Shown one piece after another: positions 27,294 to 51,946 of a DNA stretch of 64,000 nt; positions within the stretch are counted from its first letter, which is position 1, and every line of letters starts with the position of its first letter. The notes beneath the pieces are model-generated. The model did no database searches. It was not told the DNA's origin and was given only the letters and a program-made list of their open reading frames with translations. This stretch comes from an uncultured Planctomycetota bacterium (GTDB taxonomy: Bacteria > Planctomycetota > Planctomycetia > Pirellulales > Pirellulaceae): NCBI GenBank assembly GCA_963700515.1, contig CAVOXY010000056.1:11198-75197 (forward strand). The letters are read 5' to 3'. The position numbers were made by a program, and so were the translations under genes.

Positions 27294-27302
27294 AAACCGC
27301 GT

Positions 27303-27758
27303 TTAGTCCCAAACGTATCGTTCGTCCAATTCGACGCCATGTCGAGCGCAAATTGCTCGAAACTCCTCCTGAAACGTCATGCGTTTGTGATGTTCTTTCT
27401 GATTGCGAATGTATTCCCGCACCGAATCGATTTGCGACAGGCTCACTGAGAACACGCCATAACCAGCTTGCCAGTGAAAGTCCCGGTATTGTCGGCCCTT
27501 CTTCTTGATCCATTTTGACGAGTCGGTCTTGATCCTGCTAATCAATGTCTTGATGGCATAGTTGCGTGACAGAAAACACAGGATGTGTATGTGATCCTCC
27601 GTCCCGTTGATGATGACTGCCGGTGAGTCGAGCGATTTCAGGCACGTCGCCACGTATTTGTACAGTTCGTCGCAATGGCCAGTATCACGCAGGAACGGTT
27701 TTCGGTTTTTCGTACTGTAAGTGATGTGGATAGCCACCCGGGCATGGGATTGCGGCAT
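27303..27758 (-). CDS. REP-associated tyrosine transposase (RAYT; IS200/Y1 HUH family)
   Basis: 151 aa. IHITYSTKNRKPFL, HUH motif EDHIHILCF, WQAGYGVFSVS and catalytic-Tyr region YIRNQKEHHKR are typical of the Y1_Tnp/RayT family. Flanked on both sides by REP arrays. Confidence 0.8.
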   Translation of the reverse strand: MPQSHARVAIHITYSTKNRKPFLRDTGHCDELYKYVATCLKSLDSPAVIINGTEDHIHILCFLSRNYAIKTLISRIKTDSSKWIKKKGRQYRDFHWQAGYGVFSVSLSQIDSVREYIRNQKEHHKRMTFQEEFRAICARHGVELDERYVWD

Positions 27759-27890
27759 GTCGGCCTCCGGTCGTTTGGTGTGGTAGGTGAAATTCGCAAT
27801 TCACGGTTGGTTCCTCTAATGGTTCATCGCGAACGGCGCGCGAAACCCTTCACGGGTCGGCCAGAATTTCGATTTTTTTTTCAGATCGTT

Positions 27891-29022
27891 GGCGCGCCCC
27901 GTTGGAGCGGATGATGGACGCCGAATTGCAGGCCTGGGCAAACCGGCCATCCACCTGGCTCCCAGGCCCAAAGGGCCGCGCTAATCGAGGTCGGCCCGAT
28001 ACGATCCATCCGCCGAACGCATTAGCGCGGCCCCGTTGGGGCTTCGTGCGTGGTGGTGGCGTCCTACCCAGGGCGGCGGTCGGCCGCCGTTGGCGGCCTC
28101 CCTTCGCCCTGCACCTGGCATAGCGCGGCCCCGTTGGGGCGGATGTTGGACGCCGGATCGCAGGCCCGGGTATCCGGCCTCCATCTGATTCTCTGGCCCG
28201 AACGCCGCCGCGCTACACCAGGCCGCAAAGGGCCGCGCGCTATGCCAGGTGCAGGCCGCAGCGAAGCGCAGGCCTGGGCAGACCGGCCACCACCTGGCTC
28301 CCGGGCCCAAAGGGCCGCGCTAATCGAGGTCGGCCCGATACGATCCATCCGCCGAACCCGTTAGCGCAGCCCCGTTGGGGCTTCGTGCGTGGTGGTGGGC
28401 GTCCTACCCAGGGCGGCGGTCGGCCGCCGTTGGCGGCCTCCCTTCGCCCTGGGCTGGCATAGTGCGCCCCGTTGGGGCGGATGACGGTCGCCGGATCGCA
28501 GGCCCGGGTATCCGGCCTCCATCTCATTCTCTGGCCCAACGCGCCGCGCTAGGCCAGGTGCAGGCCGTAGCAAAGCGCAGGCCTGGGTAGACCGGCCTCC
28601 ATCTCGCTCCCAGGCCCAAAGGGCCGCGCTATACCAGCCCAGGCCGCAGCGAAGCGCAGGCCTGGGCAAACCGGCCTCCATCTCGCTCCCAGGCCCAACG
28701 GGCCGCGTGAATCGAGGTCGGCCCGATACGATCCATCCGCCGAACGCGTTAGCCGCGCCCCGTTGGGGCTTCGTGCGTGGTGGTGGGCGTCCTACCCAGG
28801 GCGGCGGTCGGCCGCCGTTGGCGGCCTCCCTTCGCCCTGGGCTGGCAGAGCGCGCCCCGTTGGGGCGGATGATGGACGCCGGATTGCAGGCCTGGGTAAC
28901 CGGCCTCCACCTCGCTCCCAGGCCCAAAGGGCCGCGCTAGGCCAGGTGCAGGCCGTAGCGAAGCGCAGGCCTGGGCAAACCGGCCTCCACCTCGCTCCCA
29001 GGCCCAACGGGCCGCGCTAATC
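27891..29022. repeat. REP family-1 array (right flank of RAYT), same orientation as left array
   Basis: AATCGAGGTCGGCCCGATACGATCCATCCGCCGAAC recurs at 27983, 28321 and 28708. A truncated copy at 29019 abuts the carbamoyltransferase 3' end. Confidence 0.9.
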
Positions 29023-30901: not shown

Positions 30902-31126
30902 GAGAATTCAAGATCGCCAAACGAGTGGAGCAGTTGGAGGAATCAGGACCGTTGGACCAAGTCTAGCACGACGCCCCGTGCAACGGCACTCTACCAACAC
31001 GTCGATTCCAACAATCTGTCTGCCATCGGCCCCCGGGGGCGTCCGGACCCGGGTCGGACCGCCCCGAAAAGCACGAGCCTAAAGGCCGGAGCGGTGCAGA
31101 AGAGAATCCTCATGCCTAGGGGGAAC

Positions 31127-31236
31127 GAATGCGGAATGCGGAATGCGGAATGCGGAATGCGGAATGCGGAATGCGGAATGCGGACCGGAATGCGGAATGC
31201 GGAATGCGGAATGCGGAATGCGGAATGCGGAATGCG
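31127..31236. repeat. Heptamer array (GAATGCG)n, about 15 units
   Basis: Read directly. One interruption (GACCGGAATGCG) near 31176-31185. Confidence 0.95.
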
Positions 31237-31268
31237 TATCAAGCGTTCCAGGCACCCGTTACCAACTA

Positions 31269-32127
31269 TCAAATAACCAAGTAACAAGTAACAAATAACC
31301 ATTGACCATTGAGTCGGACGGACCTAGTAGCTGATGAATCTGGAGAGGCCGGCGCAGCCGGTTTCTGGCTCCGCTGAGCCGCCATGCGGGTCGATGGAGA
31401 CGTTTCGTCCAAGGCCTCGCTCACGGTGCGAAACAGCTCGTTCGCCGCCGCGCTGGCCGGCTCGATGGCCGGTCCCATGATGACCGGTCGGGAGATCGAC
31501 TGAGCACGCGACATCGGAGGACCAGCACTCGGCGGAGACTTCGGCAGTTCCGGTTCGAGAGCTGGTACGCTGACCGGATCCGGTTCCACATTACCGGGTA
31601 CCGCAGCCGGCTGTTTCGCCGCGGGCTCGGCCGGTGTTTCGAGCGGCTGATCGCTCTTGGGCGTCTCTTCCGTCTCCGGGGTCGCTGGAGTATCGGGCAT
31701 ACGCGTCCGGCTGGACGATACGTGGAATGTCGTTCAACGGATTGGGATCGGGCACGCTTTCCAACGTCGGTTGTTCCGGCGCTGTCGCAGCTTCGTCTAT
31801 CGGCGGCGCAGCGGGCTCCGCTGGCGCGACCACCGAGGGCGCGGCAGAGGGCACGTGCACCACTTCGTTCGGGATCATCCGCAACGTCTGCTGGCAATCC
31901 CCGCCCATCGTTCGCCACACCGTCGGCTCGTAGCCGAAACAGCCTTGTTCCAACTGTTCGTAGGCCGGATGGTGAACGATCGCTTGCTCCTGACAGCCAA
32001 CCTGGCAGCCGACGGATAGCGGAACCAGCAAGCACACTGCGGCGAGCCCCAATAGCGCACTGGGCGAGCCCACGCGGGACCAAACCGGCGCAGCAGCACA
32101 TCGATCGTGTGAGAAGTTGTTATTCAC
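31269..32127 (-). pseudogene. Pro/Ala-rich putative lipoprotein downstream of Wza, one frameshift as read
   Basis: ORF 31591..32127 has signal/lipobox-like LLGLAAVCLLVPLSVGC. ORF 31269..31700 continues the P/A/E-rich sequence. The junction is near 31700. The last residues (VTCYLVI) are encoded by the heptamer array. Confidence 0.5.
31271..31313. repeat. Heptamer array (AAGTAAC/AAATAAC)n plus degenerate CATTGAC units
   Basis: AAATAACCAAGTAACAAGTAACAAATAACCATTGACCATTGAG. It overlaps the last codons of the 31269..32127 gene. Confidence 0.85.
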
Positions 32128-33503: not shown

Positions 33504-33930
33504 ACTTCACCTAATCGGTATCCGAGCAAAAGGAATCACAGTTTTTTTCGGAACATCGGGAAAGACCCGTAAGATCGGCAAGTTGAGGATACTAGGCGCA
33601 TTCGACGATTCGATGGCCGGTCAGGGACTGGCTGTGACTTGGTAAGACGTAACGGCAAATGGAACATCCGGGAGCCGGGTGAGCATGCGGCGATGCGCAG
33701 GAAAGGGATAGTCCCATTTCTGCTCCGCTCGCCGCTGCAGCCGCGTCGGGTTCATCCCGGCGGACTGAGGATTGGCCGGCGACAGGCGATGGATGCCAAC
33801 CAGTGGTCGAGCTGTCACAGGGATGCGCTCGGCCGAGGCCGAAACAGGCCGCGGCTCGAGTCGGTCTCGAACGTGTGCCGGCGTCGATGGACACGTCGGG
33901 GAGCTCGACTCGACGGTGTGTCATGGTGCG

Positions 33931-34127
33931 ACGGTAGCGGACCAGTTGTGGCCCCGCCGGGATGAACCCGACGGAAGCCGGAAGTGGTGGATGCGCACGG
34001 TAGCGGACCAGTTGTGGCCCCGCCGGGATGAACCCGACGGAAGCCGGAAGTGGCGGATGCCGCACGGTTGCGGACCAGTTGTGGCCCCGCCGGGATGAAC
34101 CCGACGGAAGCCGGAAGAGCCGACTTT
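33931..34127. repeat. 66-67-bp tandem repeat x3
   Basis: ACGGTAGCGGACCAGTTGTGGCCCCGCCGGGATGAACCCGACGGAAGCCGGAAGTGG.GGATGC starts at 33931, 33997 and 34064. An inverted partial copy (CCGCGTCGGGTTCATCCCGGCGG) lies at 33742-33764. Confidence 0.9.
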
Positions 34128-36903: not shown

Positions 36904-36979
36904 AACGATTAGGGAATGCGGAATGCGGAATGCGGAATAGAAAGTAACAAGTAACAAGTAACAAGTAACAAGTAACAAA
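36904..36979. repeat. Composite heptamer module AACGATT-AGGGAAT-(GCGGAAT)3 then (AAGTAAC)5
   Basis: Read directly. Positions 36904-36938 are the exact reverse complement of 37866-37900. Confidence 0.95.
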
Positions 36980-36982: not shown

Positions 36983-37802
36983 CTAGAGGCAACAGACGGC
37001 ACTTGGCTCGGGCAGCCCGGCAATCGACTGGAGATGCAGCAGGCGTCGATAGGCGTTCTGACTACCGGGAACGATCAGCACATACAGACAACCGTCACTC
37101 TTCCAGATCCCGACACAGAGATTGCCAGTGGTCGAGTCGGGAATGGCCGACGGAAACTTCGGCAAGTGGCGTCCGAGTCGCGTGCGAATCACCAGCAGAT
37201 AGGCAGACGACTGAGCCGGCGGGACGCTGGCTAAATACGCCACGGCATGTGAATCCCCCAACGCCAACGCCGAAAACTCCTGCCAACCCACCATCGGGAA
37301 CTGCAGCTGCTGGTTCCGCGGCAACCGATCACTTGGCGGTTGAGTCTCCTGCCAGGCTTCCGGATCCAATTTGCCGAGCCACTCGCGAGCGTACTGATCG
37401 ACCTGCGCGACGGTGAGCGTATCGCGCCAGACGAGCAACATAAACGACGACCGCCAACAGGGCCGCGACAGACAACACCGCCCCGGCAGTACTAAGCCAC
37501 CAGAGTCCGCTCGATCCGGTGCCGCCACGAACACCAGCGGGCGTCACCAGCTCGCCGCCCGGCACGGCCTGCTGCCCAGGTTCCTGCTCCACCGCCGCCA
37601 ACAGCCGATCACCCAGACCAGCAGGGACCGGAACATCTCGCATCGCTCGCTGAATCGCCCCGTCCCAGGCCTGAATCGCCTGCAACTCAGCACCTAACGC
37701 CGGATCTTCGGACACCGCCCGCAACAGCGCAGCCATGTCCGGATCAGCCGATTCGGTCGGCTCCGAGCGATAGCATTCCATGAGTTTGCGGAGGTTAGTC
37801 AT
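36983..37802 (-). pseudogene. Anti-sigma factor (single TM), one frameshift as read
   Basis: ORF 37329..37802 has an N-terminal anti-sigma-like domain and a TM helix (WWLSTAGAVLSVAALLAVVVYV). ORF 36983..37534 supplies the extracytoplasmic C-terminal domain. It lies directly downstream of the ECF sigma. Confidence 0.6.
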
Positions 37803-37900
37803 TGGTTATTGGTCACTGGTCACTTGGTTATTGGTCATTGGTCATTGGTCATTGGTCATTGGTCTATTCCGCATTCCGCATTCCGCATTCCGCATTCCCT
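37800..37900. repeat. Heptamer arrays (CATTGGT)n 37800-37865 followed by (ATTCCGC)3-ATTCCCT-AATCGTT 37866-37900
   Basis: Read directly. On the minus strand the last ACCAATG unit supplies the anti-sigma start codon (ATG at 37802). Confidence 0.95.
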
Positions 37901-37947
37901 AATCGTTAACCCGGCGTGGGCGATCAAGAGGCCATCTGTCGCAATAT

Positions 37948-38027
37948 CCACGGCTCCCTTACTCCACGGCTCCCTTACTCCACGGCTCCCTTACTCCACG
38001 GCTCCCTCGCTCCAGGGCTCCCTCACT
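37948..38027. repeat. 16-bp tandem repeat (CCACGGCTCCCTTACT) x5, last two degenerate
   Basis: Units start at 37948, 37964, 37980, 37996 and 38012. The ECF sigma stop codon (37991-37993) lies inside the array. Confidence 0.9.
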
Positions 38028-39027: not shown

Positions 39028-39073
39028 TTGTGGGTGAGCAGCCGTTGCGCTGCGATCACTACGATTCATCGAA

Positions 39074-39109
39074 ACGAGCATCTCCCCAAGAGATGCTCGT
39101 TTTTTTTTG
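39074..39109 (+). terminator. Rho-independent terminator
   Basis: ACGAGCATCTC-CCCAA-GAGATGCTCGT stem-loop followed by T9. Confidence 0.85.
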
Positions 39110-39187
39110 GTCATTGGTCATTAGTCATTAGTCATTGTCATTAGTCATTGGTCACTGGTCATTCGGTATTGGTTATTGGTTGGTGGT
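39109..39187. repeat. Heptamer array (CATTGGT/CATTAGT)n, arm 1 of inverted pair
   Basis: Read directly. It degenerates into CGGTATTGGTTATTGGTTGGTGG at the loop side. Confidence 0.95.
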
Positions 39188-39327
39188 TACTTGACAGATA
39201 CCGGTTAGTGCTTGACAGTTGACGGGGGGCGTGCCGGGGCGGATCGGTGCAATACCAGATGAGTCCTTACACTGCCTCTTGTGTCGCACTGCTCGGTAAC
39301 TCGTCGCCATCCCTCCGCCATCGCGAA

Positions 39328-39430
39328 ACCAACCGATGACCAATGACCAATGACTAATGACAATGCAAGTGACAAGTGACCAATGACCAATGACCAATGA
39401 CCAATGACCAATGACCAATGACCAATGACC
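39328..39430. repeat. Heptamer array (ACCAATG/ACTAATG)n, arm 2 of inverted pair; contains the uvrB start codon
   Basis: Reverse complement of arm 1, including the irregular units CATTGT-CATTAGT-CATTGGT next to the loop. Confidence 0.95.
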
Positions 39431-41497
39431 ATCCCTTTGAACTTTGCGCCCCGTACCAACCGGCTGGTGACCAGCCGCAGGCGATCGAGGCTTTGGTGGA
39501 CGCCATCCGGCAGGACCGGCGCCGGCAAGTGCTGTTGGGCGTCACGGGGTCGGGCAAGACATTTACGATGGCCAATGTGATCCAGGCGATCCAGAAGCCA
39601 ACGCTGGTCATCTCGCACAACAAGACCCTCGCCGCTCAGCTTTATTCGGAGTTCCGCGACTTCTTTCCCCATAATTCGGTTCATTACTTCGTCAGCTATT
39701 ACGACTACTACCAGCCCGAAGCCTACATCCCTCAGCGGGACATCTACATCGAAAAAGATGCGTCCATCAATGAAGAAATCGATCGGCTCCGGCTCGCGAC
39801 CACCAGTGCGTTGGTGAGCCGCAGGGATGTGATTGTGGTGGCCAGTGTGTCGAGTATCTACGGGCTCGGTTCGCCGGACGATTACCGCGAGATGATGGTC
39901 GCCTTGGAGCGCGGCGGCCAGATTGACCGTGATGAGATGCTGGCGCGACTGATTGACATTCAGTACGAAAGAAACGACATCAGTTTCGAGCGTGGCCGGT
40001 TTCGCGTCCGGGGCGACTGTGTGGAGATCTGGCCCTCGTACGAGGAGTACGCGGTCCGTGTGGAGCTATGGGGGGACGAGATCGATCAGCTGTCGCTGCT
40101 CAACCCGACCAGTGGCGAGACGATTTCGGTGCAGGATCAGTTATTCATCTACCCGGCCAAGCACTTCGTGATGCCGGAGGAGCGGATTGAGGGCGCGGTC
40201 AAGTTGATCAAACAGGAACTGGATGAGCAACTGGAAAAGTTCCGCCAGGAAGGAAAATTGCTCGAGGCGCAGCGGTTGAGCGCACGCACGCGGTTCGATA
40301 TGGAAATGCTGCTGCAAGCGGGGGTGTGTCCGGGCATCGAGAACTACAGCCGACCGCTGTCCGGTCGCTCGGCCGGCGAGCCGCCTGACACGCTGTACGA
40401 TTTCTTCCCGCACGATTTCCTCCTGTTCGTCGACGAATCACACGTCAGTATTCCGCAAATCCGCGCGATGTTCGCTGGCGATCAGAGCCGCAAACGGACG
40501 TTGGTCGAGCATGGCTTTCGATTGCCCAGCGCGATGGACAACCGGCCCTTGAAGTTCGAAGAATGGGAACAGCGGGCACGTCAAGCCGTGTTCGTGTCGG
40601 CCACGCCTAGCGATTACGAGCTACAACAGACGGGCGGGGAGGTGGTGGAGCAGATCATCCGGCCGACCGGCTTGCTCGACCCGATCATTGAAGTCGTGCC
40701 GGCCCGCAACCAGGTCGTACACCTCCTGGAGGAGATCCGCCAGCAGGGCGAAAATCGGCGAACGGGTCCTGGTGACCGCCCTGACCAAACGACTGGCCGA
40801 AGATCTCTCGGCGTATTTCAGCGAGCAAGGAGTGGCCTGCAAGTGGCTGCATAGTGAGCTGGATGCGTTTGAGCGAGTCGATCTGCTGCGCGACCTGCGC
40901 GAAGGGCGCTTTGAGGCATTGGTCGGAGTGAATCTGCTGCGCGAAGGACTCGACCTCCCCGAAGTGTCACTGGTCGCCATTCTGGATGCCGACAAGGAAG
41001 GGTTCCTCCGCAGCGAAACGTCACTGATCCAAACGATCGGCCGAGCCGCTCGGAACGTCAATGCCAAGGTCATTCTCTATGCCGATAAAATCACCAATTC
41101 CATGCGGCTGGCGATCGACGAGACGAATCGACGTCGAGCGATGCAGGAGGCCTACAACAAAGAGCATGGCATTACGCCCGAGACGATTCGCAAAAACATC
41201 CGAGCGGGCATCGAATCCGACGTGGCAGCTCACCGAGCGGCCAATGCCGCGGTGGGACGAGCGGACGAGGAGCAATACGTGACGGCCGAGTACATGAACG
41301 AGCTGGAGGCCGAAATGCTCGAAGCAGCCGAACAACTGGAATTCGAACGAGCAGCCGCGATCCGCGACCGACTCATGCAACTCAAAGAACACGTCGGTAA
41401 GAAACTCAACCAGGTCGAAGTCAGCTCGTACAAACCCCGTGGCCGCCGCCACAGTTCCGGCTCGTCACAGAAAGTCCCCCGGCCAGGGAAGAAGTAG
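39418..41497 (+). pseudogene. uvrB: Excinuclease ABC subunit B, one frameshift as read
   Basis: 39418..40854 starts [27 protein letters not shown]...[15 protein letters not shown]. 40688..41497 continues [25 protein letters not shown]...[27 protein letters not shown]...[14 protein letters not shown]. The shift is at CAGCAGGGCGAAAAT, about 40745-40760. Confidence 0.9.
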
Positions 41498-41498
41498 A

Positions 41499-41543
41499 GT
41501 CATTGGTCATTGGTCATTGGTCATTGGTCATTGGTCACTGGTC
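41499..41543. repeat. Heptamer array (CATTGGT)n, arm 1
   Basis: Starts 2 nt after the uvrB stop. Confidence 0.95.
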
Positions 41544-41650
41544 CAACTTGTTCCGAACCCATCGTAAGTCGTTGCGCACCTTGACTTATCGTACTACATG
41601 CTGAGCATCGAAATCGTGCACCTTGCGCCGCTGTGGTTCACGACCCCCAC

Positions 41651-41712
41651 TGACCAATGACCAATGACTAATGACTAATGACCAATGACCAATGACACAA
41701 TGACCAATGACT
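41651..41712. repeat. Heptamer array (GACCAAT/GACTAAT)n, arm 2
   Basis: Inverted relative to 41499-41543, with a 107-nt spacer. CTTGACA follows directly. Confidence 0.95.
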
Positions 41713-41784
41713 ACCGCTTGACAAAGCACCCCCCGTTCCGGCAAAGTAACTACTGACGTGATCGTGGGCCAAGGGAGAAAACCC

Positions 41785-42165: not shown

Positions 42166-42215
42166 GGTCATTTGTCGTTCGTTAATAGTTGCTCGTTACT
42201 GGAGAGGGAGCGAAA

Positions 42216-42629
42216 ATGGCGACCAAAGGATTTGAGAATTTGCGGGTGTATCAGATGGCTGAAGATTTAGCGGATACGATATGGGAGTTAGTTTGTCGAT
42301 GGGATCGGCTGGCAAAGGACACGATTGGCAGGCAGTTGATCCGAGCGACCGATAGCATTGGGGCCAATATTGCCGAGGGGAGTGGCCGTGGCACATACCC
42401 GGACAATCGCAGGTTCGTACGGGTGGCACGCGGTTCTTTGTACGAAACGCGACATTGGCTGCGCCGCGCATTTCGACGAGGACTATTGAGCTGCGAACAG
42501 ACCGCCGTATTGAAACCACTAATTGACGAACTCAGCCCAAAACTAAACGCCTACCTCAACTCAATCGGCAAGAAACAAGAACCAAGGGCTAACGAAAAAG
42601 AATCAAAGAAGAAGGAACACGACCAATGA
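42216..42629 (+). CDS. Four-helix-bundle protein (23S rRNA intervening-sequence protein / Avd-like family)
   Basis: GAGGGAG lies upstream of the ATG at 42216. FENLRVYQMAEDLADTIWELV...IGRQLIRATDSIGANIAEGSGRGTYPDNRRFVRVARGSLYETRHWL is the family signature. The stop TGA is inside the GACCAAT array. Confidence 0.8.
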   Translation: MATKGFENLRVYQMAEDLADTIWELVCRWDRLAKDTIGRQLIRATDSIGANIAEGSGRGTYPDNRRFVRVARGSLYETRHWLRRAFRRGLLSCEQTAVLKPLIDELSPKLNAYLNSIGKKQEPRANEKESKKKEHDQ

Positions 42630-42646
42630 CCAATGACCAATGACAA
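42621..42646. repeat. Heptamer array (GACCAAT)x3.5
   Basis: It fills the whole 10-nt gap between the upstream stop (42627-42629) and the nadC ATG (42640), and supplies both codons. Confidence 0.9.
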
Positions 42647-43587
42647 GGGACATTCATGTGACGAGCGACTTTCACCAGATTCAGTGGGATGCGGTGCTGG
42701 AGGACGATTGTCGTCAGTTGGTTCGGCTGGCGGTTCGCGAGGACCTGGACCGACGCTTTGACGTGACCACCTTGGCGCTGGTGGAGCGCGACGTGCGCGG
42801 AGCGGCGGTGGTCATGGCGCGGCAGCCGGGCATCGTGTGCGGGCTGCGGGCCGCTGAGTTGGTGTTGGACGAGATGGAGATCTCCGCCCTCTGGCAGCCA
42901 CACGTCGCGGACGGCGATGCGGTCTCGGCTCCCCAGCCGCTCGCCACGCTCTCCGGATCGGCGCGGGATCTGCTCACCGCCGAGCGACTGCTACTGAATC
43001 TGATGGGACGACTCTCGGGGATCGCGACGCTCACGCGCCAATATGTCGACTTGGTGGCGGGCAGCGGAGCGCGGATCTACGACACGCGGAAGACCACCCC
43101 CGGCTGGCGTCGGCTGGAAAAATATGCGGTCCGTTGCGGCGGTGGCTGCAATCATCGCACGGGCCTGTTTGACGCGGTATTGATCAAGGACAACCATCTG
43201 GCACTGGCGGCCGAGCACACAGCCGCGACTCTGTCCCCCGCCGACGCCGTCCGGAAAGCGCGTCAGCGGCTCGCTGAAATGCTGCCCGAGGACACCGGCA
43301 AGATGATTGTGGAGGTGGAAGTGGACACGCTGGCGCAGCTCGACCAGGCGCTCACTCAGCAGCCCGACATTGTGTTGTTGGACAACATGACTCTCGCCCA
43401 ACTGCTCGACGCAGTCGCTCGTCGCGATCGAGCGGGCGTGGTCACGCAGTTGGAGGCGTCCGGAGGAGTCAACCTGCAAACGGTGCGTGCCATCGCGCAG
43501 ACGGGAGTCGAACGGATCAGCGTCGGCGCCCTCACCCACTCGGCCATTTCGCTCGACGTGGCACTCGACTGGAAATCGCCCAACTGA
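42640..43587 (+). CDS. nadC: Nicotinate-nucleotide diphosphorylase (carboxylating) / quinolinate phosphoribosyltransferase
   Basis: 315 aa. YDTRKTTPGWRRLEKYAVRCGGGCNHRTGLFDAVLIKDNHLA and VEVEVDTLAQLDQAL...DIVLLDNM...LEASGGV are NadC blocks. Confidence 0.9.
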   Translation: MTRDIHVTSDFHQIQWDAVLEDDCRQLVRLAVREDLDRRFDVTTLALVERDVRGAAVVMARQPGIVCGLRAAELVLDEMEISALWQPHVADGDAVSAPQPLATLSGSARDLLTAERLLLNLMGRLSGIATLTRQYVDLVAGSGARIYDTRKTTPGWRRLEKYAVRCGGGCNHRTGLFDAVLIKDNHLALAAEHTAATLSPADAVRKARQRLAEMLPEDTGKMIVEVEVDTLAQLDQALTQQPDIVLLDNMTLAQLLDAVARRDRAGVVTQLEASGGVNLQTVRAIAQTGVERISVGALTHSAISLDVALDWKSPN

Positions 43588-43684: not shown

Positions 43685-43741
43685 CTACTCACTACTCACT
43701 ACTCACTACTCACTACTCACTACTCACTACTCACTACTCAC
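43685..43741. repeat. Heptamer array (CTACTCA)x8
   Basis: Read directly. Its reverse complement is the GTGAGTA family seen at 46931. Confidence 0.95.
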
Positions 43742-44298
43742 CCCCTGGCACGCCTTACCTGGTGAAAACAAAGGCACCGTGCACTGCACACGGCAAAAGC
43801 GTTACAACCGTTAAACTCTTCCTGACCGGCCATCTCCGTGCAGTGGCCGCAGATCTCGTCTGGCGGTCCTACAACAGGACCAATCATCTTGCACGGCATA
43901 GATGTTACGTCACTCACACAAGTGAGAATCGAAACATCCGGCAAATCCGGCTAACGTGATTTCCCCGTCACATTCGATACATTCAGTAAGCGACGGTGCG
44001 TGGGCAGCGTCGTGGCACGCGATTTTCCCCACCAGACCTTCACACCTTCCGAGGCGGCAGGACCGCCAGCCCAGTTGGGAACAAAACGCCAATGCGCCGC
44101 CCCCGTCGGTCGCGACCGCGACTGGCGTGTACGGAGCACGCATGTTTTCCATAAAGACACGGGGTCGGACCTCGCACCAGTTACCAATGACGAGCTACCG
44201 CTCGAACTTCATTGGACCGCCCCCGTTGGTCGCTCGAACCCGACTCACAGCAACACGTTTTTCCCCATCAGCAGACTAATTGTTCCGGACAACAACCC

Positions 44299-46939
44299 AT
44301 GAGAATACCGGCGATCATGTCTTCTCGGTGTATGTGGCTGATCTATGTTTCCGTGCTCGTCAGCCTTGTTATCCAAACAGGTTGCAGTCGACGCCGCTTT
44401 CGCCTGGCAGCCGACGACCAGGCACAGGAGTTGATTGCCGAGAAGGGTGCCATGTGCCCGGATTGGGCGCTGCGCGACTGGAGCGTCTATGGTGACCAGC
44501 GCAGTCGCTACTACGACAACTGCAACCCCGACGGTCCTCCGATGCCACCCGACGACCCGTTGTCCCACGAGTTCATGTGCGAAGTGGATGGCATGAAGGG
44601 CTGGAAGCACTGGAACGACTTCGGCGTGCGCAGCCAGTTGGACAATAAGCGTTGGCGCGAACAGCTCGTGCAGTACGCCGAGTTCAACGAGAAGGACGAA
44701 GTGGTGCTGGATATTAACTCGGCACTTCAGCTGGCCCTGATCCATTCGCCATCGTACCAGCAGCAACTCGAAACCATTTACTTATCGGCGCTGGACGTCA
44801 GTACGGAACGGTTTCGGTTTGAAGTCCAGTTCTTTGGCGGCAACGGCACGCGTTTCACGCACGAGGGACGACTCGTCGGTAATCCTCTGCCGTCGAACCG
44901 CGGAGTGGGACTTGGTGGGACGCGGAACACGTCGAGCGGCGAGCGGAACTTGTTGCGCAACTCGTCCGACGTCTGGATGGAAAAGCAGTTCGCGACAGCC
45001 GGCGAGTTGGCGGTTGGGTTTGCCAACTCGATCGTGTGGACGTTTGCCGGCCCCGATACCAATGCCACCGGCTCCCTGCTCAATGCCAACCTGGTCCAAC
45101 CGTTGCTGCGCGGAGCGGGCCGGGACGTGGCGTTGGAACAGCTGACGATTGTCGAGCGGGCCTTGCTGGCCAACCTCCGCGCGTACCAGCGTTATCGCCA
45201 CGGATTCTATACGCAAGTGGCGGTCGGAGAACTGGGTGTCTCCGGCCCGTCGCGCCGTGGCGGCTTCTTCGGCGGCACGGGCTTGACCGGTTTCACGGGC
45301 CAAGGCTCCGGCGGTCTGGGTGGTGTCGGCTCGGCGACCGGCTTCGGCCGCTCCGGGTTCAGTACCGGCGGTACGGGAGGCGGCACGGGTGGCGGGACAG
45401 GCCTGGCAGGCGGTGGTGCCGGGATCGTGGGCGGCTTCATCGGACTGCTGCAGCGGCTGCAGGAGATCCGCAACACCGAAGACAGTCTCGCCCTGCAATT
45501 GAACCAGCTCGCCAAGTTGGAAGCCTACCACAGGGCGGGTTTGATCACGCTGATCCAAGTCGACAACTTGCGGCAGAACGTCGAGACCGAGCGGGCCAAT
45601 CTGCTGCAGTCGCAAAATGCTTTCGAAGCCACCCTCGATTCGTTCAATACCAACACCATGGGGCTCCCCCCCGATCTTCCCGTGGCGCTGAACGACAGTC
45701 TGATTCGCCAATTCCAGTTCCTCGATCCACGCGTCACTACGATGTCTCGCGAGTTGTCGATCTTGCGGTCGTCCGTGGGCGACCTCCCGGCCACGCCCAG
45801 CATCGAACAGCTGACGACCGCCGTCGCAACCGCCCGCGGTATCGAACAGAAGTTGGGGAATCACTTCGACAATATTCATGACGACTATGCCACGCTCGAC
45901 CAGCGGACCCCCGCGCGATTCACCACCTTGCCGCCAACGGAAGTCGAACGGTTACAGAGCGAAATGCAACAAGAAACGCGAGAAGCTGGCCGAAATCGAG
46001 TCCCGCTACGCGCGCTTCAAAGAAGAACTCGACGCCATCAACGACGGAGTGACCCCGGACAACGTTACCGAGTCACTCGGGACATTGGTGGAGTGGCTTG
46101 GCGCATTCGACCGGCTGATCGAGGAAGCATCGCTGGTCCAGGCCCGAGCGCGACTGGAGTCGGTCATTATGGAACCGATTCATCTGGCATCGCAAGAAGC
46201 GCTCCAGATCGCGCAAGCCAATCGGCTCGATGTGATGAACAACCGGGCGGCCCTCGTCGATTCGTGGCGATTGATCGCCTTCAACGCCGACGCGTTACAG
46301 TCCGACCTGACCGTGAATCTCGGTGGCGATATCAGCACCACCGGCAATAACCCACTCAAATTCCGCAGTCCCACCGGATCGATGCGAGCATCCCTGCAGA
46401 TCGACGCGCCCTTCACGCGACTGTTGGAACGTAACAACTATCGCCAGTCGCTGATCGACTATTCTCAAGATCGACGGCAGTATATCCAGTTCATGGACGG
46501 CATTCACCAGACGTTGCGGAACCTGCTGCGGAACCTGGAACAGCTGCAAACGAACCTGGAAATCCAACGCCGCGCGGTGGCCATCTCGATCCGCCGAGTG
46601 GACCTGACACGCGAGAACCTGTCGCAACCCCGACCACCGGCAGCACCCGGCGAACCTCCGGCCATGTTCGGCGATACGGCCGCCATGGACCTGCTCAACG
46701 CACTGTCCGATCTGCGTAATACCCAAAACAACTTCATGAGCGTCTGGTTGAACCATTACGCCACGCGGATGGTGCTCGAACGCGACCTCGGGATCATGGA
46801 ATTGGACGAAGACGGCCGCTGGATCGAACAACCCGGACGTTTGCCTCAGCCCAGCGATCTGGAGGACCTTGAACTGCCGCCACCGGTCCCCCAAAGCCTG
46901 ATCGAAGAACTCGACCACGCCGTTGCCGTTAGTGAGTAG
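44299..46939 (+). pseudogene. TolC-family outer membrane efflux protein with Gly-rich insert, one frameshift as read
   Basis: The ATG at 44299 gives lipoprotein-type signal LVSLVIQTGCS. SALQLALIHSPSYQQQLETIYLSALDVSTERFRF and LVQPLLRGAGRDVALEQL are in 44212..46350. ALQIAQANRLDVMNNRAALVDSWRL...LQIDAPFTRLLERNNY is in 45878..46939. The shift is near 45950-46000. Confidence 0.75.
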
Positions 46940-47013
46940 TGAGTAGTGAGTAGTGAGTAGTGAGTAGTGAGGAGTGAGTAGTGAGGAGTGAGGAGTGAGG
47001 AGTGAGGAGTGAG
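46931..47013. repeat. Heptamer array (GTGAGTA)x5 then (GTGAGGA)x5
   Basis: It begins at the last codons of the TolC-like gene. The stop TAG is part of the first unit. Confidence 0.95.
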
Positions 47014-47288
47014 GCTAGGCGATAACCATGTGCGCAAGTTTGTAGGACGGGGTCCCGTCCGCGCACGCACATAGGATCCCAAGCTACCCCATTTGGCGCT
47101 TCGGGGTTCTCACGGCTAAACCTAACGCGGCCTGCGGCCGCAACCAAAAAGGGTTTGAAAGCGTCCGGTTCTGCTGACTTGGTTCACCGGAATACCAGGG
47201 AATGCGCAATGCGGAATCAGCAGTAGCAAGTTCACGGTGCACGCTGTCGAAGTGTTCGCCACCCCATTGCACTTTCAACGCCATCTCT

Positions 47289-47755
47289 CATTCCGCACCC
47301 CGCACCCCGCACTCCGCACCCCACACCCCACACCCCACATTCCGCATTCCGCATTCCGCATTCCGCACTCCGCATTCCGCACTCCGCACTCCGCATTCCG
47401 CATTCCGCATTCCGCATTCCGCACCCCGCACCCCACACCCCACACCCCACACCCCACATTCCGCATTCCGCACTCCGCATTCCGCACCCCGCACTCCGCA
47501 CTCCGCACCCCGCATTCCGCACTCCGCACCCCGCACTCCGCACCCCGCACCCCGCACCCCGCACCCCGCATTCCGCACCCCGCACCCCGCACTCCGCACC
47601 CCGCACCCCGCACCCCGCACCCCGCACCCCGCACTCCGCACTCCGCACCCCGCACCCCGCACTCCGCACTCCGCACTCCGCACTCCGCATTCCGCATTCC
47701 GCACTCCAAACCCCGCACTCCGCATTCCGCACTCCGCATTCCGCATTCCGCATTC
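47289..47755. repeat. 467-bp heptamer array, about 66 units of CAYYCCR (CATTCCG, CACTCCG, CACCCCG, CACCCCA)
   Basis: Parsed unit by unit. The phase is kept except for one irregular stretch near 47706-47713. A short inverted partner AGGGAATGCGCAATGCGGAAT lies at 47198-47218. The long ORFs here (PHSAFRIPHSAF...) are repeat artefacts. Confidence 0.95.
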
Positions 47756-48384
47756 ATTACCGCAATATCAGTATCACCGCCCGGAAGGCACCCGCCCGGA
47801 AGGCACCCGCGGAAGCGCCCGCCAGATGCCGCCACCGACGCTCTCGGGTGTCTTACTTGGCGAGGGCCGATACTCCCGTGTGGAGCTCCGAGTAAGGGCG
47901 GCCATCCCAACGCTTTTCATCGCACACGGCTCGTTTCCCAACTGCAGCCGTCACCCAATTCGCTGCAGGATACGAGGTACTTGGCACATCCGTCCGAGCA
48001 GAATTCGGCAGACAGGGGGCGACATTCTGCTCCGGCGGTGGTTAAGATACAGGGGAAGATGAATGTGTGTTGTGCTGGCTCGCCGCAGCCCGAAGTCCCC
48101 GTTCGTGTGGGGGGGCAGGTGGCAGCGGGTCAGCGGCACCGGGGATGAATTCTGATTGCGATGGCCGCGAGCGGGTGCACGTAATCAAGTTCCGAGACTT
48201 CTCGCTGCTGTCCTCACCGTCGGGCGCAACGCCCCCTGGGGGGCCGTGGTGGCTGCGGTAGGTGCGAGGTCCCCTGCCATCCCACAGTCAACCCGTTCCC
48301 TTTGCGTACCGAGCGAGGCGGGGCCTTCTGTGGTTCCGGCAAGGGCATATTCCGAGGCAGCGATTTCTAAGGTAATGAGAAAAC

Positions 48385-50271
48385 ATGGCCAGTACGACTC
48401 AGCAACCACCCAGTTCAGCCAAAGTTCCCAGCGCAGGTCGAGGTCAAGTGGCGAGCGTTCGACGCCCCCCACCCTCGGAGAACTCCTGGGTAGCGCGTGT
48501 GATGGTGGTTGTGATCATCGTGGCCATTCTAGCTGGCGGAGCGTGGGGTACTGTTCACTTGATCGGCTCGCAGAGCCAGGACAAGGAATCGGCCATGCTC
48601 ACGGCACGAGTCGAGCGTGGCGAATTGTTGGTCACGGTTGTCGAAGACGGCAATTTGGAAAGCGCTGTCAACATCGACATCAAGTGCGAAGTGGCTGGCG
48701 GCACTTCCATCCTGTGGATTGTCGATGACGGCACGGAGGTGGAGAAGGGGGGGAAGATTGTGGAGCTCGATTCTGCCGCACTGGAAGAGTCGATCAATCA
48801 ACAGCGGATTGCTTACGAGAAGGCTCGGGCGGCGAAGATCCAAGCGGAGAAGGACTATGCGGCGGCGAAGCTGGCCGTCGACGAATACCTGCAAGGAACC
48901 TACGTGCAGGCGGTGCAGGACCAGGACGCTCAGATCACGATTTCGGAAGAGAATTTGCGGTCGGCTCAGAATGCGTTGGAACATTCCGAGCGGATGTTCC
49001 GCAAAGGCTACATCAGCGCCTTGGACCTGGAGAGCCAGAAGTTCTCGGTCCAACGAGCACAACTCGAATTAGACTCGGCACGCACAGCCAAGGACGTGCT
49101 GGTCAAGTTCACCAAGGAAAAAACCGTTCAGGAACTGGAAAGCAAACGCGACTCGTCGGAAGCGCAGATGCGGTCGGAAGGGGCGTCGTTTGATTTGGAG
49201 GAGTCGCGTCTGAAGCGACTCGAGGCACAGTTGGAAAAATGTGTCATCAAAGCTCCGGCAAGGCGGCATGGCGGTCTACGCGAACGAACAAGGGGGACGT
49301 TTCGGCGGGTCCCAGCAGCCTCAGATTGAAGAAGGAGCCATGGTTCGCGAGCGGCAGACGATCCTGCGACTTCCCGACTTGTCCAAGATGCAAGTCAAGG
49401 TGAACGTCCACGAATCGAAGGTGGAGATGCTGGGGGTCGCCTTGAAGGAGGCGCTGAAACGAGGTGAGGATCTGCGAGCGGTGATTCGGATCCTGGATCG
49501 TGAGCTGCTGGGCAAGCTGAGCAACATTGCCAATCAGCCGGAACCGTCCGGTTGGTGGACCGGCAACATCAAGGAGTATGCCACCACCATTTCGATCGAC
49601 GGCACGCCCGATGGCCTCCGCCCGGGCATGACGGCCGAGTGCGAGATTCTGGTGGAACATCTGGAGGACGTCCTGACCATCCCCGTCGCCGCCGTGGTCG
49701 AGCAGCGGGGCGGATACTTTGCCTGGATCAAGACGGCCGAAGTTCCGAACGTCGCCCGTTGGTGTTGGGGGCCACGAACGACCAGTTCGTGGAAGTGAAA
49801 GATGGCCTGGTGGAAGACATGGAAGTCATTCTGAACCCCCGTGCGATGATCCCGGAAGCGCGCGGCGTCAAAGACGCTGTGGAAGAAGTGAACGTCGATA
49901 AGAAGTTCGGTAAGGAACGGAAACGCGATGTCGAGGCCGAAGAGACTCCCGCAGCCGGCCCGGGAGGACCTGGTGCTGGTGGACCTGGGACCGGTGGACC
50001 TGGCGAGGCAACTCCTGGCGGTGCTGGTCCTGGTGCCGGCGGTCCGGAAGGACGGGGCAAACCGGGTGGTATGAACTTAATGCAACTCGACAAGGACGGG
50101 GACGGTAAGATTTCCAAGGACGAGGCCCCCGAACCGATGCAGCAGTACTTTGACATGATGGATGCCAACAAGGACGGGTTTATCGACCGGGCTGAAGCGA
50201 CGAAGGCGACGGCGATGCGGCGAGCTGCGGGCCAGGGTGGCGCTGGCGGTCCCGGCGGACCACCACAGTAG
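48385..50271 (+). pseudogene. HlyD/MacA-type periplasmic adaptor with C-terminal Gly/Pro linker and EF-hand pair, two frameshifts as read
   Basis: 48385..49329 has a TM helix, barrel-sandwich and coiled-coil regions. 49241..49798 has GMAVYANEQGG...LSKMQVKVNVHESKV...[24 protein letters not shown]. 49552..50271 has [18 protein letters not shown]..., then [14 protein letters not shown] and [14 protein letters not shown]. Confidence 0.75.
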
Positions 50272-50277
50272 CCTGGT

Positions 50278-50386
50278 ACTGGTCATTGGTCAGTCTGGTC
50301 ATTGGTCATTGGTCACTGGTCATTGGTCATTGGTCACTGGTCATTGGTCACTGCGTGCATTGAGTCATTGGTCATTGGTCATTGGC
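50278..50386. repeat. Heptamer array (CATTGGT/CACTGGT)n, arm 1
   Basis: Starts 7 nt after the adaptor stop. Confidence 0.95.
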
Positions 50387-50430
50387 ATGGTTCGGCTGAC
50401 TCAATACCAAGTGCATCCTCCGACCCTTAC

Positions 50431-50517
50431 AAATGACTAGTGACTAGTGACTAGTGACCAATGACTAGTGACAAATGACTAATGACTAGTGACTAATGAC
50501 TAGTGACCAACCACCAA
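50431..50517. repeat. Heptamer array (TGACTAG/TGACCAA/TGACTAA)n, arm 2
   Basis: Inverted relative to arm 1, with a 44-nt spacer. It ends 20 nt before the permease start. Confidence 0.95.
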
Positions 50518-50537
50518 TCTGACGCGGGATCGATAAC

Positions 50538-51867
50538 TTGTTCAAACGCATTCTTCTCACACTTCGCCTGGGGTTTAGCAGCCTGCTGCTTCACAAGCTC
50601 CGCTCGGGGCTCGCGGTGCTCGGTATTCTGATCGGCATCACGGCCGTGATCTGGCTCGTGGCGATGGGAGAAGGTGTCAGCTACCAGGCACAGCAACAGA
50701 TCAAGGATTTGGGTGCCAACAATATCATCGTCCGCAGCGTCAAGCCGGCGCAAACCTCGTCCAAGATGGGTAGTGCGCTCTTCATTCCGTACGGTGTTCT
50801 GCGCGACGACTATAAGCGCATCATCTCGAACATCCCGATTGTCGAGCAGGCCGTGCCGATGCGCGAGATCAAGCGCGAGGTGCGATCCGGTGCCAATGCC
50901 ACGGAAGTGCGACTGGTCGGCTGCACGCCCGAATACTACTCGCTCAATCATCTTTCGATGATGCGCGGCCGTTTCCTGGAGGACCGCGACAGCGATCCCC
51001 CGGACAACGTCTGCGTGATTGCCGAAGCGGCCGCCGAAAAACTGTTCGGATTTGAGAATCCGATTGGCCAGTCGATCCAGATCGATCGCGATTTCTATAC
51101 CGTCGTGGGCGAAACCGCGCGGCGCGACCCGACAGCAGCGATCGGGGGTAGCCTCGACTCGCAAGACTACAACATGGACGTCTACATTCCGCTGGAGACT
51201 TTGCGGTCTCGCATCGGAGACATGGTGTTGACCAGCCGATCGGGTAGCCGCGAAGGGGAAGTGGTGGAATTGAGTCAGATCACCGTGACGGTCGCCAACC
51301 TGGACCAGGTCGATCAGACCGCCGATATCATTCGCACGCTCGTCGAAAAATACCACCCCAACGAAGATGTGAAAGTGGTGGTTCCCAAAGAGCTGCTGCG
51401 GCAGGCTGAGTTGATGCGGATGTTGTTCAACTTCCTGTTGGTACTGATCGCAGGCATTTCGCTGGTCGTCGGCGGTATCGGCATCATGAACATCATGCTG
51501 GCTACGGTCACCGAACGAACGCGCGAGATCGGGATTCGCCGAGCGTTGGGTGCCACGCGGCGAGCGATCATTTACCAGTTCCTCGTGGAGGCCGTCGTAC
51601 TGACCGGCGTGGGGGGCAGCATTGGGAGTCGGATTCGGATTCCTGGTCGGGCCGGCAGTCAACCTGACTCGCCGAGCGGCAATTGGCATGTTCCCTGACG
51701 TCATGTCCAGCTTGCCCCCAACCATGATGCAACTCGAACCGCGCATCGCCAGCTGGTCCATCATCGCCTCGCTACTGATCTCTTTCGCCGTCGGCCTGGT
51801 CTTTGGACTCTACCCCGCTCGCCGAGCCGCCATGATGGACCCGATCGAAGCGCTGCGCCACGAGTAG
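50538..51867 (+). pseudogene. MacB-like ABC transporter permease (MacB_PCD + FtsX domains), one frameshift as read
   Basis: [29 protein letters not shown]...ANNIIVRS (N-terminus) and [43 protein letters not shown] (FtsX). The tail is in ORF 51622..51867. TTG start as tracked. No ATPase gene is adjacent. Confidence 0.8.
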
Positions 51868-51870: not shown

Positions 51871-51946
51871 TTGGTTACTTGTTACTTGTTACTTGTTACT
51901 TGTGCACGTGTCATTCCGCATTCCGCATTCCGCATTCCGCATTCCC
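51871..51946. repeat. Composite heptamer module (GTTACTT)4 then (CATTCCG)4-CATTCCC-TATTCGTT
   Basis: Same module as 36904-36979 in the opposite orientation. It starts 4 nt after the permease stop. Confidence 0.95.

Follow-up and report, generated by a model that had tools for sequence, protein, structure and literature searches.

The window analyzed here is a 64,000-nucleotide stretch of contig CAVOXY010000056.1 (GenBank assembly GCA_963700515.1, positions 11,198 to 75,197 of the forward strand) from an uncultured Planctomycetota bacterium. Its subject is a set of head-to-tail heptanucleotide arrays that lie between the genes, among them uvrB, nadC, leuC, leuD, and genes for TolC-like, MFP, and MacB-like proteins. 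The gene map was built from Pfam and NCBIfam matches and from tblastn comparisons with intact orthologues. The nadC product (42640-43587) has a 100% match in public data, and its nearest relatives are annotated as Pirellulaceae or Planctomycetota. NadC and its neighbors assign the contig to the Pirellulaceae, in agreement with a planctomycete host; G+C content of the host is 59%, and these 64 kb are the genome coverage for this organism. Syntenic loci from relatives were compared: L001 (84% NadC identity), L002 (73%), L003 and L004 (71%), L175, L176, and L177.

A first-pass annotation, made from the sequence, had described period-7 arrays with units of four families, spread over 12 intergenic regions, and none in the first 31 kb. 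Tandem Repeats Finder (TRF) and an independent period-7 autocorrelation scan bore this out. They located about 20 arrays, all at 31.1 to 60.2 kb, and found no period-7 array in 1-31 kb. Overlay on the gene map placed them in 12 intergenic regions within a 33-kb stretch. The families are TTGGTCA, GCGGAAT, GTAACAA, and GTGAGTA, and the arrays have 2 to 66 copies with 85 to 100% matches. The dimer TTGGTCATTGGTCA, with at most one mismatch, occurs 53 times, versus 0.03 expected from dinucleotide-preserving shuffles. This array density is unusually high compared with other planctomycete loci bearing (TTGGTCA)x4. At least six genes on the contig are frameshifted relative to intact orthologues (Table 1), which suggests an assembly prone to indel errors (long reads) rather than pseudogenes. 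Therefore, exact copy numbers and single irregular units may include indel errors.

The archetype of the arrangement lies upstream of uvrB. It had been described as 11 units, a 140-nt loop, and 14 inverted units, and we obtained about 10.7 and 14.6 units around a loop of 142 nt. The arms are true inverted copies, as had been proposed: the 30 nt closest to the loop, CATTGTCATTAGTCATTGGTCA(C/T)TGGTCAT, are 97% complementary between the arms, and they include an irregular 6-mer unit that is mirrored on both sides. Arm 1 begins inside the T-run of the intrinsic terminator of the upstream gene, and the hairpin of that terminator is also kept in L001. The arm is positioned exactly between this T-run and the conserved core of the loop. 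That core contains the direct repeat CTTGACAG-N13-CTTGACAGTT (39199-39232), which is also present upstream of uvrB in L001 (at about 6250-6290). Because the repeat is common to both, the loop is probably a uvrB promoter or operator region, and the repeat itself is a candidate element of it, possibly SOS-type. TTGACA/T boxes are present in two pair loops and are weak evidence for promoters. The same architecture was found where the first-pass annotation had placed it, at three more TTGGTCA-family pairs and one asymmetric GCGGAAT pair (47198-47752). The arms of all five inverted pairs are 82 to 93% complementary.

All 11 TTGGTCA-family arms in the window obey a single orientation rule relative to the nearest real gene end, as had been claimed. 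Read in the sense of the gene, TTGGTCA lies past the stop codon and TGACCAA before the start codon. The 11 arms amount to 7 independent placements, four pairs and three single arms (two-sided p of about 0.016). One arm, at 60155-60220, conforms as the post-stop arm of the minus-strand epimerase gene (60224-61288); the plus-strand open reading frame (ORF) at 60209-61414 gave no family match and was judged spurious. The rule is strand symmetric: followed 5' to 3', the TTGGTCA strand leads away from the ORF beside it. For a pair, this equals the polarity 5'-(TTGGTCA)n...(TGACCAA)n-3'. Since the four pairs all lie between codirectional genes, gene direction and simple pair polarity are inseparable in the window. 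The idea that the arrays are locked to gene direction, as a property of its own, therefore reduces to this geometry. Composite arrays of other families are also placed with respect to genes. (GTTACTT)n(GCATTCC)n lies directly past the stop of two genes (anti-sigma and MacB-like), the same composite is just downstream of a minus-strand ORF at 31.3 kb with an uncertain exact stop, and (GCGGAAT)n(CAATGAC)n precedes a start codon.

Direct reading upheld what had been said about the reading frames of the two arms. (CATTGGT)n is free of stop codons. In (ACCAATG)n, TGA occurs in each of the three frames, and every unit contains an ATG. Some of these codons are used by genes, and the array-associated genes include the housekeeping genes uvrB, nadC, and leuD. 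The uvrB start (ATG at 39418) is the ATG of the penultimate unit of arm 2, giving the N terminus MTNDHPFEL. From the array at 42621-42644, the 23S_rRNA_IVP gene takes its TGA stop (42627-42629) and nadC its ATG start (42640). The minus-strand anti-sigma gene starts with the ATG of the last CAATGAC unit (37802), and the start of the amidase gene is 5 nt from an array. We compared the UvrB N terminus with those encoded in relatives, which are MTNDEF in L001, MDFEL in L003, and MEFQL in L002. Upstream of uvrB, L001 has GTGACCC ATGACGA ACGACGA, a decayed heptamer array. The array-encoded MTND is common to the window and L001, so the start codon was acquired before they diverged. After the divergence, the array decayed in L001 and expanded in the window.

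The first-pass annotation had suggested that an inverted pair could form either a stem in RNA or a cruciform in DNA. The RNA part of this proposal stood. The four TTGGTCA-family pairs have RNA folding z-scores of -12.7 (39100-39440), -11.2 (41495-41715), -13.2 (50272-50520), and -17.0 (53720-54025), and their predicted stems are 45 to 80 bp. A DNA cruciform is unlikely, since long spacers between inverted arms disfavor cruciform extrusion and the loops here are 41 to 160 nt. In the third pair (50280/50429), the arms match largely through G.U wobbles in plus-strand (sense) RNA. At the non-Watson-Crick stem positions, sense RNA has G.U in 20 cases and A.C in 5. In three of the four pairs, the sense strand gives the better fold, by 7, 22, and 31 kcal/mol over the antisense strand. 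This advantage is consistent with pairing at the RNA level and equally with a C-to-T bias on the nontemplate strand.

Some simpler identities for the pairs were rejected. They are not intrinsic terminators, because a T-run, and so a U-tract, is absent after every arm 2; the only strong terminator, at 39071-39108, is distinct from the pair and lies upstream of arm 1. Among the five pairs, no loop resembles another loop or any other part of the window. Unique, unrelated loops exclude a family of MITEs (miniature inverted-repeat transposable elements) with a common core. Rfam covariance models, run over 30-64 kb, gave no match at the gathering threshold. The heptamer units are not palindromic, and the TTGGTCA, GTAACAA, and GTGAGTA units have no run of three or more G residues. 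The ACCCCGC blocks of the 47292-47752 array are (GGGGTGC)n on the minus strand and capable of forming G-quadruplexes, as are the repeats described in Nostoc by Rehm et al. 2015 (PMC4692102).

Table 1. Arrays, associated elements, and frameshifted genes of the window
Position	Strand	Feature	Context
31127-31312		(GAATGCG)x16, 40-nt spacer, (CAAGTAA)x3, (ACCATTG)x2	Flanked by two minus-strand genes
36904-36978		Composite AACGATTAGG(GAATGCG)x3.7 + (AAGTAAC)x5.3	End is 6 nt from anti-sigma stop
36913-36978		Extent of the same composite as called by TRF/period-7 scan	Near anti-sigma stop
37013-37802	-	Anti-sigma gene, frameshifted	
37798-37898		Composite (GTCATTG)x9.4 + (ATTCCGC)x4.7	At start of minus-strand anti-sigma gene
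39071-39108	+	Intrinsic terminator, 14-bp stem + T9 (terminator scan)	Of upstream small lipoprotein-like gene
39107-39188		Archetype arm 1, (TTGGTCA)-like on plus strand, ~10.7 units	Degenerates toward loop
39189-39330	+	Archetype loop, 142 nt	Unique
39331-39433		Archetype arm 2, (ACCAATG)-like on plus strand, ~14.6 units	
39418-41497		uvrB, frameshifted	
41499-41543		Second pair, arm 1, (GTCATTG)x6.4	From 2 nt past uvrB stop
41647-41711		Second pair, arm 2, (CCAATGA)x9	47 nt upstream of comEA-like (HHH_3) gene
42621-42644		(GACCAAT)x3.4	Between 23S_rRNA_IVP gene and nadC
43685-43741		(CTACTCA)x8	96 nt past nadC stop
44212-46939		TolC-like gene, frameshifted	
46930-47013		(TAGTGAG/GAGTGAG)x12	Overlaps TolC-like stop codon (46939)
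47198-47752		(GCGGAAT)x3 at 47198-47218, 70-nt loop, 66-unit array at 47292-47752 of ATTCCGC/ACTCCGC/ACCCCGC	
48385-50271		MFP gene, frameshifted (two shifts)	
50280-50385		Third pair, arm 1, (TGGTCAT/TGGTCAC)x14	From 9 nt past stop of MFP/EF-hand efflux gene
50429-50507		Third pair, arm 2, (TGACTAG/TGACCAA/TGACTAA)x10.6	30 nt upstream of MacB-like start (50538)
50538-51867		MacB-like gene, frameshifted	
51874-51945		(GTTACTT)x4.3 + (CATTCCG)x4.9	From 6 nt past MacB-like stop
53727-53783		Fourth pair, (TGGTCAC/TGGTCAT)x7.4; gene-sense GTGACCA	Directly upstream of minus-strand amidase start (53722)
53944-54016		Fourth pair, other arm, (TGACCAA)x10; gene-sense TTGGTCA	22 nt downstream of minus-strand leuD stop (54039)
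54781-56194		leuC, frameshifted	
60128-60220		(ACAAGTA)x3.7 + (CAATGAC)x9	Directly downstream of minus-strand epimerase stop (60224)

Relatives carry arrays at the same intergenic positions, built from other units. L001 has (CCCTTCCT)15 upstream of nadC, (ACTCTT)9 past the nadC stop and, after it, three oppositely oriented (GAGAGT/GAGTAA) blocks, and octamer and hexamer arrays upstream of uvrB. L003 and L004 have (ATGTTCG)n blocks upstream of uvrB, (GTCATTC)4 directly past the uvrB stop, and (GAATGAC/GAGTGAC)6 that extends into the start of nadC; the last two arrays are inverted around the comEA-like gene. The units of orthologous arrays can differ by one base, as in ATTCGTC of L003/L004 and ATTGGTC of the window. 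L177 has short 6- and 7-mer arrays that include inverted pairs, and L002, L175, and L176 are almost array free. These comparisons show that the arrays are clade-wide but patchy, and that the intergenic position is kept while the unit (6, 7, or 8 nt) turns over. L001 also has, at 6383-6723 and 11172-11592, tandem duplications of a unit of about 130 nt together with (GAGTAA)n (periods 167 and 152 nt). In this composite repeat, a hexamer array is joined to a conserved segment.

Arrays have also been dispersed within the window. Three GCGGAAT arrays, one at 36904 and two in reverse complement at 37907 and 51960, have the degenerate flank AACGAWTAGG in common, and the composite (GCGGAAT)n(AAGTAAC)n is common to three genes. 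The segments 36904-36938 and 37873-37907 are 35-nt, 100% inverted copies that enclose the anti-sigma gene. The array at 51874-51945 is the reverse complement of the 36904-36978 module and retains the degenerate flank (GGAACGAATAGG). Since decayed flanks are shared, arrays were copied together with their decayed end units, in both orientations. A metagenome scan for a lineage-specific flank plus array yielded no matches. The arrays at 43685-43741 and 46930-47013 are mutually inverted and enclose the TolC-like gene.

Gene order around the arrays varies as well. The comEA-like (HHH_3) gene, in segment 41544-42620, is on the plus strand in the window and on the minus strand in L001-L004, where it lies between uvrB and nadC. 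Because this segment sits between inverted TTGGTCA-family arrays, it is probably the product of an array-mediated inversion. The gene for the 23S_rRNA_IVP four-helix-bundle protein (42189-42629) is present only in the window when compared with L001-L004, and uvrB is inverted in L175, L176, and L177.

We scanned one genome per GTDB species for (TTGGTCA)x4, which identified at least 119 loci. At least 74 are in Cyanobacteria (Nostoc, Anabaena, Dolichospermum, Coleofasciculus, Microcoleus, Aulosira, Fischerella, Nodularia, and others), which supports the earlier view of the arrays as relatives of a cyanobacterial repeat. At least 25 loci are in Planctomycetota and at least 9 in Bacteroidota. The planctomycete loci come from at least 14 assemblies other than that of the window, so the assumption that the phylum lacks such arrays was mistaken. 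The carriers include several Pirellulales metagenome-assembled genomes, Isosphaeraceae, Zavarzinella formosa DSM 19928, Planctomicrobium, Aureliella, and Phycisphaerae. The further carriers named next, and all counts of array period, orientation, and pairing outside the window, are among the matches listed. Verrucomicrobia, Victivallales, Polyangiaceae, Acidobacteriota, Anaerolineae, and more carry (TTGGTCA)x4, and 208 of 252 arrays at the cyanobacterial loci have period 7. In viral contigs, TTGGTCA formed x4 arrays at 20 loci, (GCGGAAT)x4 was found at 14, and composition-matched control heptamers were found at 6, 5, and 6. We therefore rejected TTGGTCA as a uniquely privileged heptamer; the controls form arrays too, and TTGGTCA is only few-fold enriched.

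Orientation across genomes was measured relative to the nearest long ORF, with gene calls that are crude in high-GC loci. The nearest ORF was 5' of the TTGGTCA strand by 47:16 in cyanobacteria (p = 1e-4), 9:2 in Bacteroidota, and 72:31 in all phyla. Other heptamer families at cyanobacterial and Bacteroidota loci have fewer G than C residues in the sense strand before starts (22:5) and more G than C after stops (32:12). This rule matches the one reported for GGGAATC and GGGGA(C/T)T arrays by Rehm et al. 2015 (PMC4692102). Neighboring arrays of the same family were inverted in 14 cases and direct in 12 in cyanobacteria, and inverted in 10 and direct in none in other Planctomycetota.

The arrays are of the kind called short tandemly repeated repetitive (STRR) sequences in heterocystous cyanobacteria. 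Mazel et al. reportedly named three STRR units in 1990, TTGGTCA being STRR2. To our knowledge, STRR-type heptamer arrays have had no known function since then. The likenesses are a 7-nt unit arranged head to tail, many intergenic copies, several families per genome, and an identical unit, TTGGTCA; cyanobacterial arrays also have an orientation bias and frequent inverted pairs. However, a host in the Pirellulaceae fails the historical definition by heterocystous cyanobacteria, TTGGTCA is not restricted to cyanobacteria, and GCGGAAT, GTAACAA, and GTGAGTA are not classical STRR units. The three heptanucleotides of Calothrix PCC 7601 are cited by Rehm et al. 2015 (PLoS One; PMC4692102), who themselves described 70 to 75 convergent inverted pairs of heptamer arrays per Xanthomonas genome. 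They also published an orientation preference for the GGGAATC and GGGGA(C/T)T heptamers of Xanthomonas and Nostoc. Contrary to the first-pass annotation, then, a paired, gene-oriented arrangement had already been described. The Xanthomonas and Nostoc arrays were closer to the upstream ORF and rare between divergent genes, their length and sequence varied between related species at conserved loci, and no regulatory effect was found and no function identified. Intergenic arrays, convergent inverted pairs, and orientation preference are all found in the window. However, the G-tracts of those heptamers form G-quadruplexes in vitro, which TTGGTCA cannot do. By this standard, only the ACCCCGC part of 47292-47752, on the minus strand, is G-quadruplex capable in the window.

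A second comparison is with direct repeats of the unit TAACTGA in marine Beggiatoaceae, cyanobacteria, and Bacteroidetes (MacGregor 2015; PMC4679880). These stop-rich "forward" arrays lie a few nucleotides from start codons, a role in translation initiation was proposed for them, and their hosts, scattered across phyla, rarely use Shine-Dalgarno sequences. Arrays of the window are likewise in fixed orientation at or a few nucleotides from start codons (uvrB, nadC, anti-sigma, and amidase genes). However, the window units TGACCAA, TGACTAA, and TGACTAG are not rotations of TAACTGA, whose arrays are short (2 to 6 copies) and almost never inverted, whereas those in the window contain the start codon itself and pair with a complementary arm. 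More generally, the arrays resemble the long simple sequence repeats (long SSRs) of Mrazek et al. 2007, which have units of 5 to 11 nt, most often heptamers, are sporadic in their phylogenetic distribution, and have been proposed to originate by polymerase slippage. As far as that account goes, long SSRs are a general statistical class, and inverted pairing and orientation are not addressed. In phase-variation contingency SSRs, a copy number that changes from one very close strain to another turns a gene on or off; the pair compared in this respect was L003 and L004, about 98% identical, whose arrays have the same copy numbers.

Repetitive extragenic palindromic (REP) sequences, bacterial interspersed mosaic elements (BIMEs), and MITEs are also dispersed intergenic repeats able to form hairpins in transcripts. 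However, REP units are 20- to 40-nt palindromes mobilized by a REP-associated tyrosine transposase (RAYT), and MITEs have a conserved core, whereas the loops in the window are unique. The window has repeats of the REP type elsewhere. A RAYT-like gene at 57075-57728 (NF047646, E = 7e-10, below the curated cutoff) is flanked by GC-rich palindromic repeats of 30 to 49 nt. They have a 44-nt period at 56308-56748, 30 nt at 56988-57105, and 49/98 nt at 57746-58335, with units of the GTAGCTGAG...CTCAGC type. The region 56308-58335 looks like a classic RAYT with REP/BIME clusters, unrelated to the heptamers. Large composite tandem repeats at 26056-29019 (periods 80, 98, 308, and 388 nt) consist of GC-rich hairpin units, CCAGGCCCAAAGGGCCGCGC among them, and probably represent a further REP-like family.

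Other features of the window concern tandem repeats and annotation. A tandem repeat with a 16-nt unit, (TCCACGGCTCCCTTAC)x5, at 37947-38027 overlaps an extracytoplasmic function (ECF) sigma gene at its 3' end, and 2.9 copies of a 66-nt tandem repeat lie in the intergenic region at 33927-34117. The array-free 1-31 kb contain an exopolysaccharide cluster (YdjC, GT1, PGA_cap, Wzy, flippase, and Wzz/ParA-like kinase). The G+C content of 1-8 kb is 0.49 to 0.53, and a DDE transposase gene is at 17346-18626. This part is possibly recently acquired or operonic DNA that has yet to accumulate arrays. The arrays create spurious long ORFs at 47202-48148, 47232-47910, 30991-31302, and 60209-61414, which encode repeat "proteins" (PHSAFRT..., MRNAECG...) on both strands. 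Such ORFs are likely to be misannotated as genes in public records, and ambiguous start codons also matter for annotation.

On balance we think it probable, if only modestly so, that these are STRR-type heptanucleotide long SSR arrays with fast turnover, whose orientation would be filtered at the level of mRNA and whose pairs would insulate neighboring genes. The anatomy, class membership, dispersal, turnover, start-codon capture, and orientation bias of the arrays are shown by the results above. Arrays would arise and change length by slipped-strand mispairing, and recombination or template switching would carry copies of them, in either orientation, into further intergenic regions. Because turnover is quick, relatives have different units at the same intergenic positions. 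Expansion would continue until constrained sequence is met, namely, the ends of ORFs on the outside and the terminator and promoter core on the inside, which would become the loop. We infer selection at the mRNA level. The G-poor, stop-rich, unstructured (ACCAAUG)n would be tolerated or used as a 5' leader that runs up to the start codon and, in three genes, includes it. Such a sequence does not self-pair, and it has UGA in all frames and overlapping mini-ORFs (MTNDQ-stop) with AUGA overlaps. These features would suit a leader role in a phylum that seldom uses Shine-Dalgarno sequences. The complementary (CAUUGGU)n, G/U rich and free of stops, would lie in the 3' trailer of the preceding gene. 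In the archetype, a strong terminator stands ahead of arm 1, so that arm would be transcribed mainly on read-through. A read-through transcript would then fold both arms into 45 to 80 bp of double-stranded RNA (dsRNA) and bury the downstream start codon. For uvrB, a dsRNA of about 75 bp would sequester the initiation region and could plausibly serve as an RNase III substrate. Formation of dsRNA on read-through would insulate neighboring transcription units from each other, and inversions would be promoted by the inverted arrays as a by-product.

Several results weigh against this interpretation. A sigma-70 consensus scan of the pair loops found no promoter, and the idea of a promoter in the loop rests on one conserved motif. 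The GTGAGTA arrays (43685 and 46930) follow no simple orientation rule. In other Planctomycetota, the orientation count was 12:9, not significant with crude gene calls, and it was 17:13 with a gene caller based on G+C content at third codon positions (GC3), which was wrong in 3 of 8 cases in the window. The cross-phylum loci were selected on four perfect units. Pair polarity outside the window was like that of the window in 9 cases and opposite in 7. Universal pair polarity was thus rejected, and the earlier statement that the reverse order never occurs does not extend to other genomes. L003 and L004, about 98% identical and independently assembled, have identical copy numbers in arrays of 4 to 6 units; rapid copy-number change was not seen between them, and arrays of this size are not fast slipping. 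The pair at 41495-41715 folds 5 kcal/mol better as the antisense strand. The excess of G.U positions may stem from a C-to-T bias on the nontemplate strand, and the units counted are not independent.

A neutral origin is a real possibility, though one that we regard with doubt. Slippage-prone arrays would persist as satellite DNA where selection is weak, mutational strand asymmetry tied to transcription or replication, together with purging of harmful orientations, would give rise to the bias and to the G.U-compatible variation, and the pairs would be functionless. This would suit the differing units and periods at the same sites of relatives, the array-free state of some close relatives, the decay seen in the L001 relic, the arrays formed by composition-matched control heptamers (5 to 6 loci in viral contigs, versus 20 for TTGGTCA), and the lack of a regulatory effect in Rehm et al. 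2015 (PMC4692102). However, three genes need array-supplied start codons, the orientation bias is common to several phyla and unit families, and 82 to 93% arm complementarity is kept although the arrays expand separately. Moreover, purging of harmful orientations is itself selection at the mRNA level, and so a neutral origin overlaps with the interpretation that we favor. It is quite unlikely that the arrays act in DNA, as binding sites of a sequence-specific or nucleoid protein or as recombination substrates or cruciforms that organize or rearrange the chromosome. The inverted state of the array-flanked comEA-like segment relative to L001-L004 and the variable orientation of uvrB among relatives would fit such a role. 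So would the inverted GCGGAAT copies around the anti-sigma gene, the inverted GTGAGTA arrays around the TolC-like gene, and the recurrence of TTGGTCA in many phyla. However, any inverted repeat is expected to bring inversions as a side effect, loops of 41 to 160 nt disfavor cruciform extrusion, the asymmetry of G.U versus A.C points to RNA, and the difference in units between close relatives argues against a conserved sequence-specific binder.

Dedicated machinery, either a MITE-like element with array termini or templated synthesis by a polymerase or reverse transcriptase, seems very unlikely. It would explain genome-specific families, since a few unit families occupy many loci per genome, and it is in keeping with the degenerate flanks copied along with arrays and with orthologous arrays one base apart (ATTGGTC versus ATTCGTC). 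However, unique, unrelated loops leave no element core, target-site duplications are not evident, and the metagenome scan for flank plus array was negative. Furthermore, no transposase or reverse transcriptase adjoins the arrays in the window, where the only transposases are a DDE insertion sequence at 17.3-18.6 kb and the RAYT-like gene, which has its own, different REP repeats. We give hardly any credence to an artifact of assembly or sequencing. The six or more frameshifted genes are typical of error-prone long-read assembly, but the arrays sit in unique flanks and abut conserved genes, and an irregular unit is mirrored in both archetype arms. Arrays of the same class are also identical in the independent assemblies L003 and L004 and are found in genomes of isolates, among them complete Nostoc chromosomes and that of Zavarzinella formosa.

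A bolder reading, which we consider unlikely, is that heptamer arrays are a cross-phylum, orientation-selected cis-regulatory device. (UGACCAA)n would be a ribosome landing pad, on which mini-ORFs (AUG ACC AAU GAC CAA UGA) with AUGA stop/start overlaps would feed ribosomes to the AUG of the gene, the last in the series. The upstream complementary arm would be an off switch or RNase III guide, which would shut the pad on read-through transcripts or direct their cleavage by RNase III and so insulate the neighbors. In a stronger version, a dedicated trans-acting factor or templated synthesis may set the unit families of each genome. If the landing pad reading is true, the arrays would serve genomes in which Shine-Dalgarno sequences are seldom used (Cyanobacteria, Bacteroidota, and Planctomycetota).

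The repeat class, inverted pairing, and orientation preference were already known. New here are the planctomycete host phylum, given that our literature searches found heptamer arrays in Planctomycetota undescribed, as well as the density and nested multifamily organization of the arrays, the turnover of units at fixed positions, and start-codon capture. The orientation bias of TTGGTCA in cyanobacteria, with a similar trend in Bacteroidota, is also new. TTGGTCA arrays are thus common to Cyanobacteria, Bacteroidota, and Planctomycetota despite the distance between these phyla, with the same orientation bias in cyanobacteria as in the window. Genes can become reliant on array-supplied start codons, and the mismatches between arms favor pairing in sense RNA. 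For STRR arrays, "function unknown" could give way to a specific hypothesis, in which they would be mRNA leaders and trailers and would insulate against read-through. The same arrays are carried by cultivable organisms, Nostoc/Anabaena and Zavarzinella formosa.

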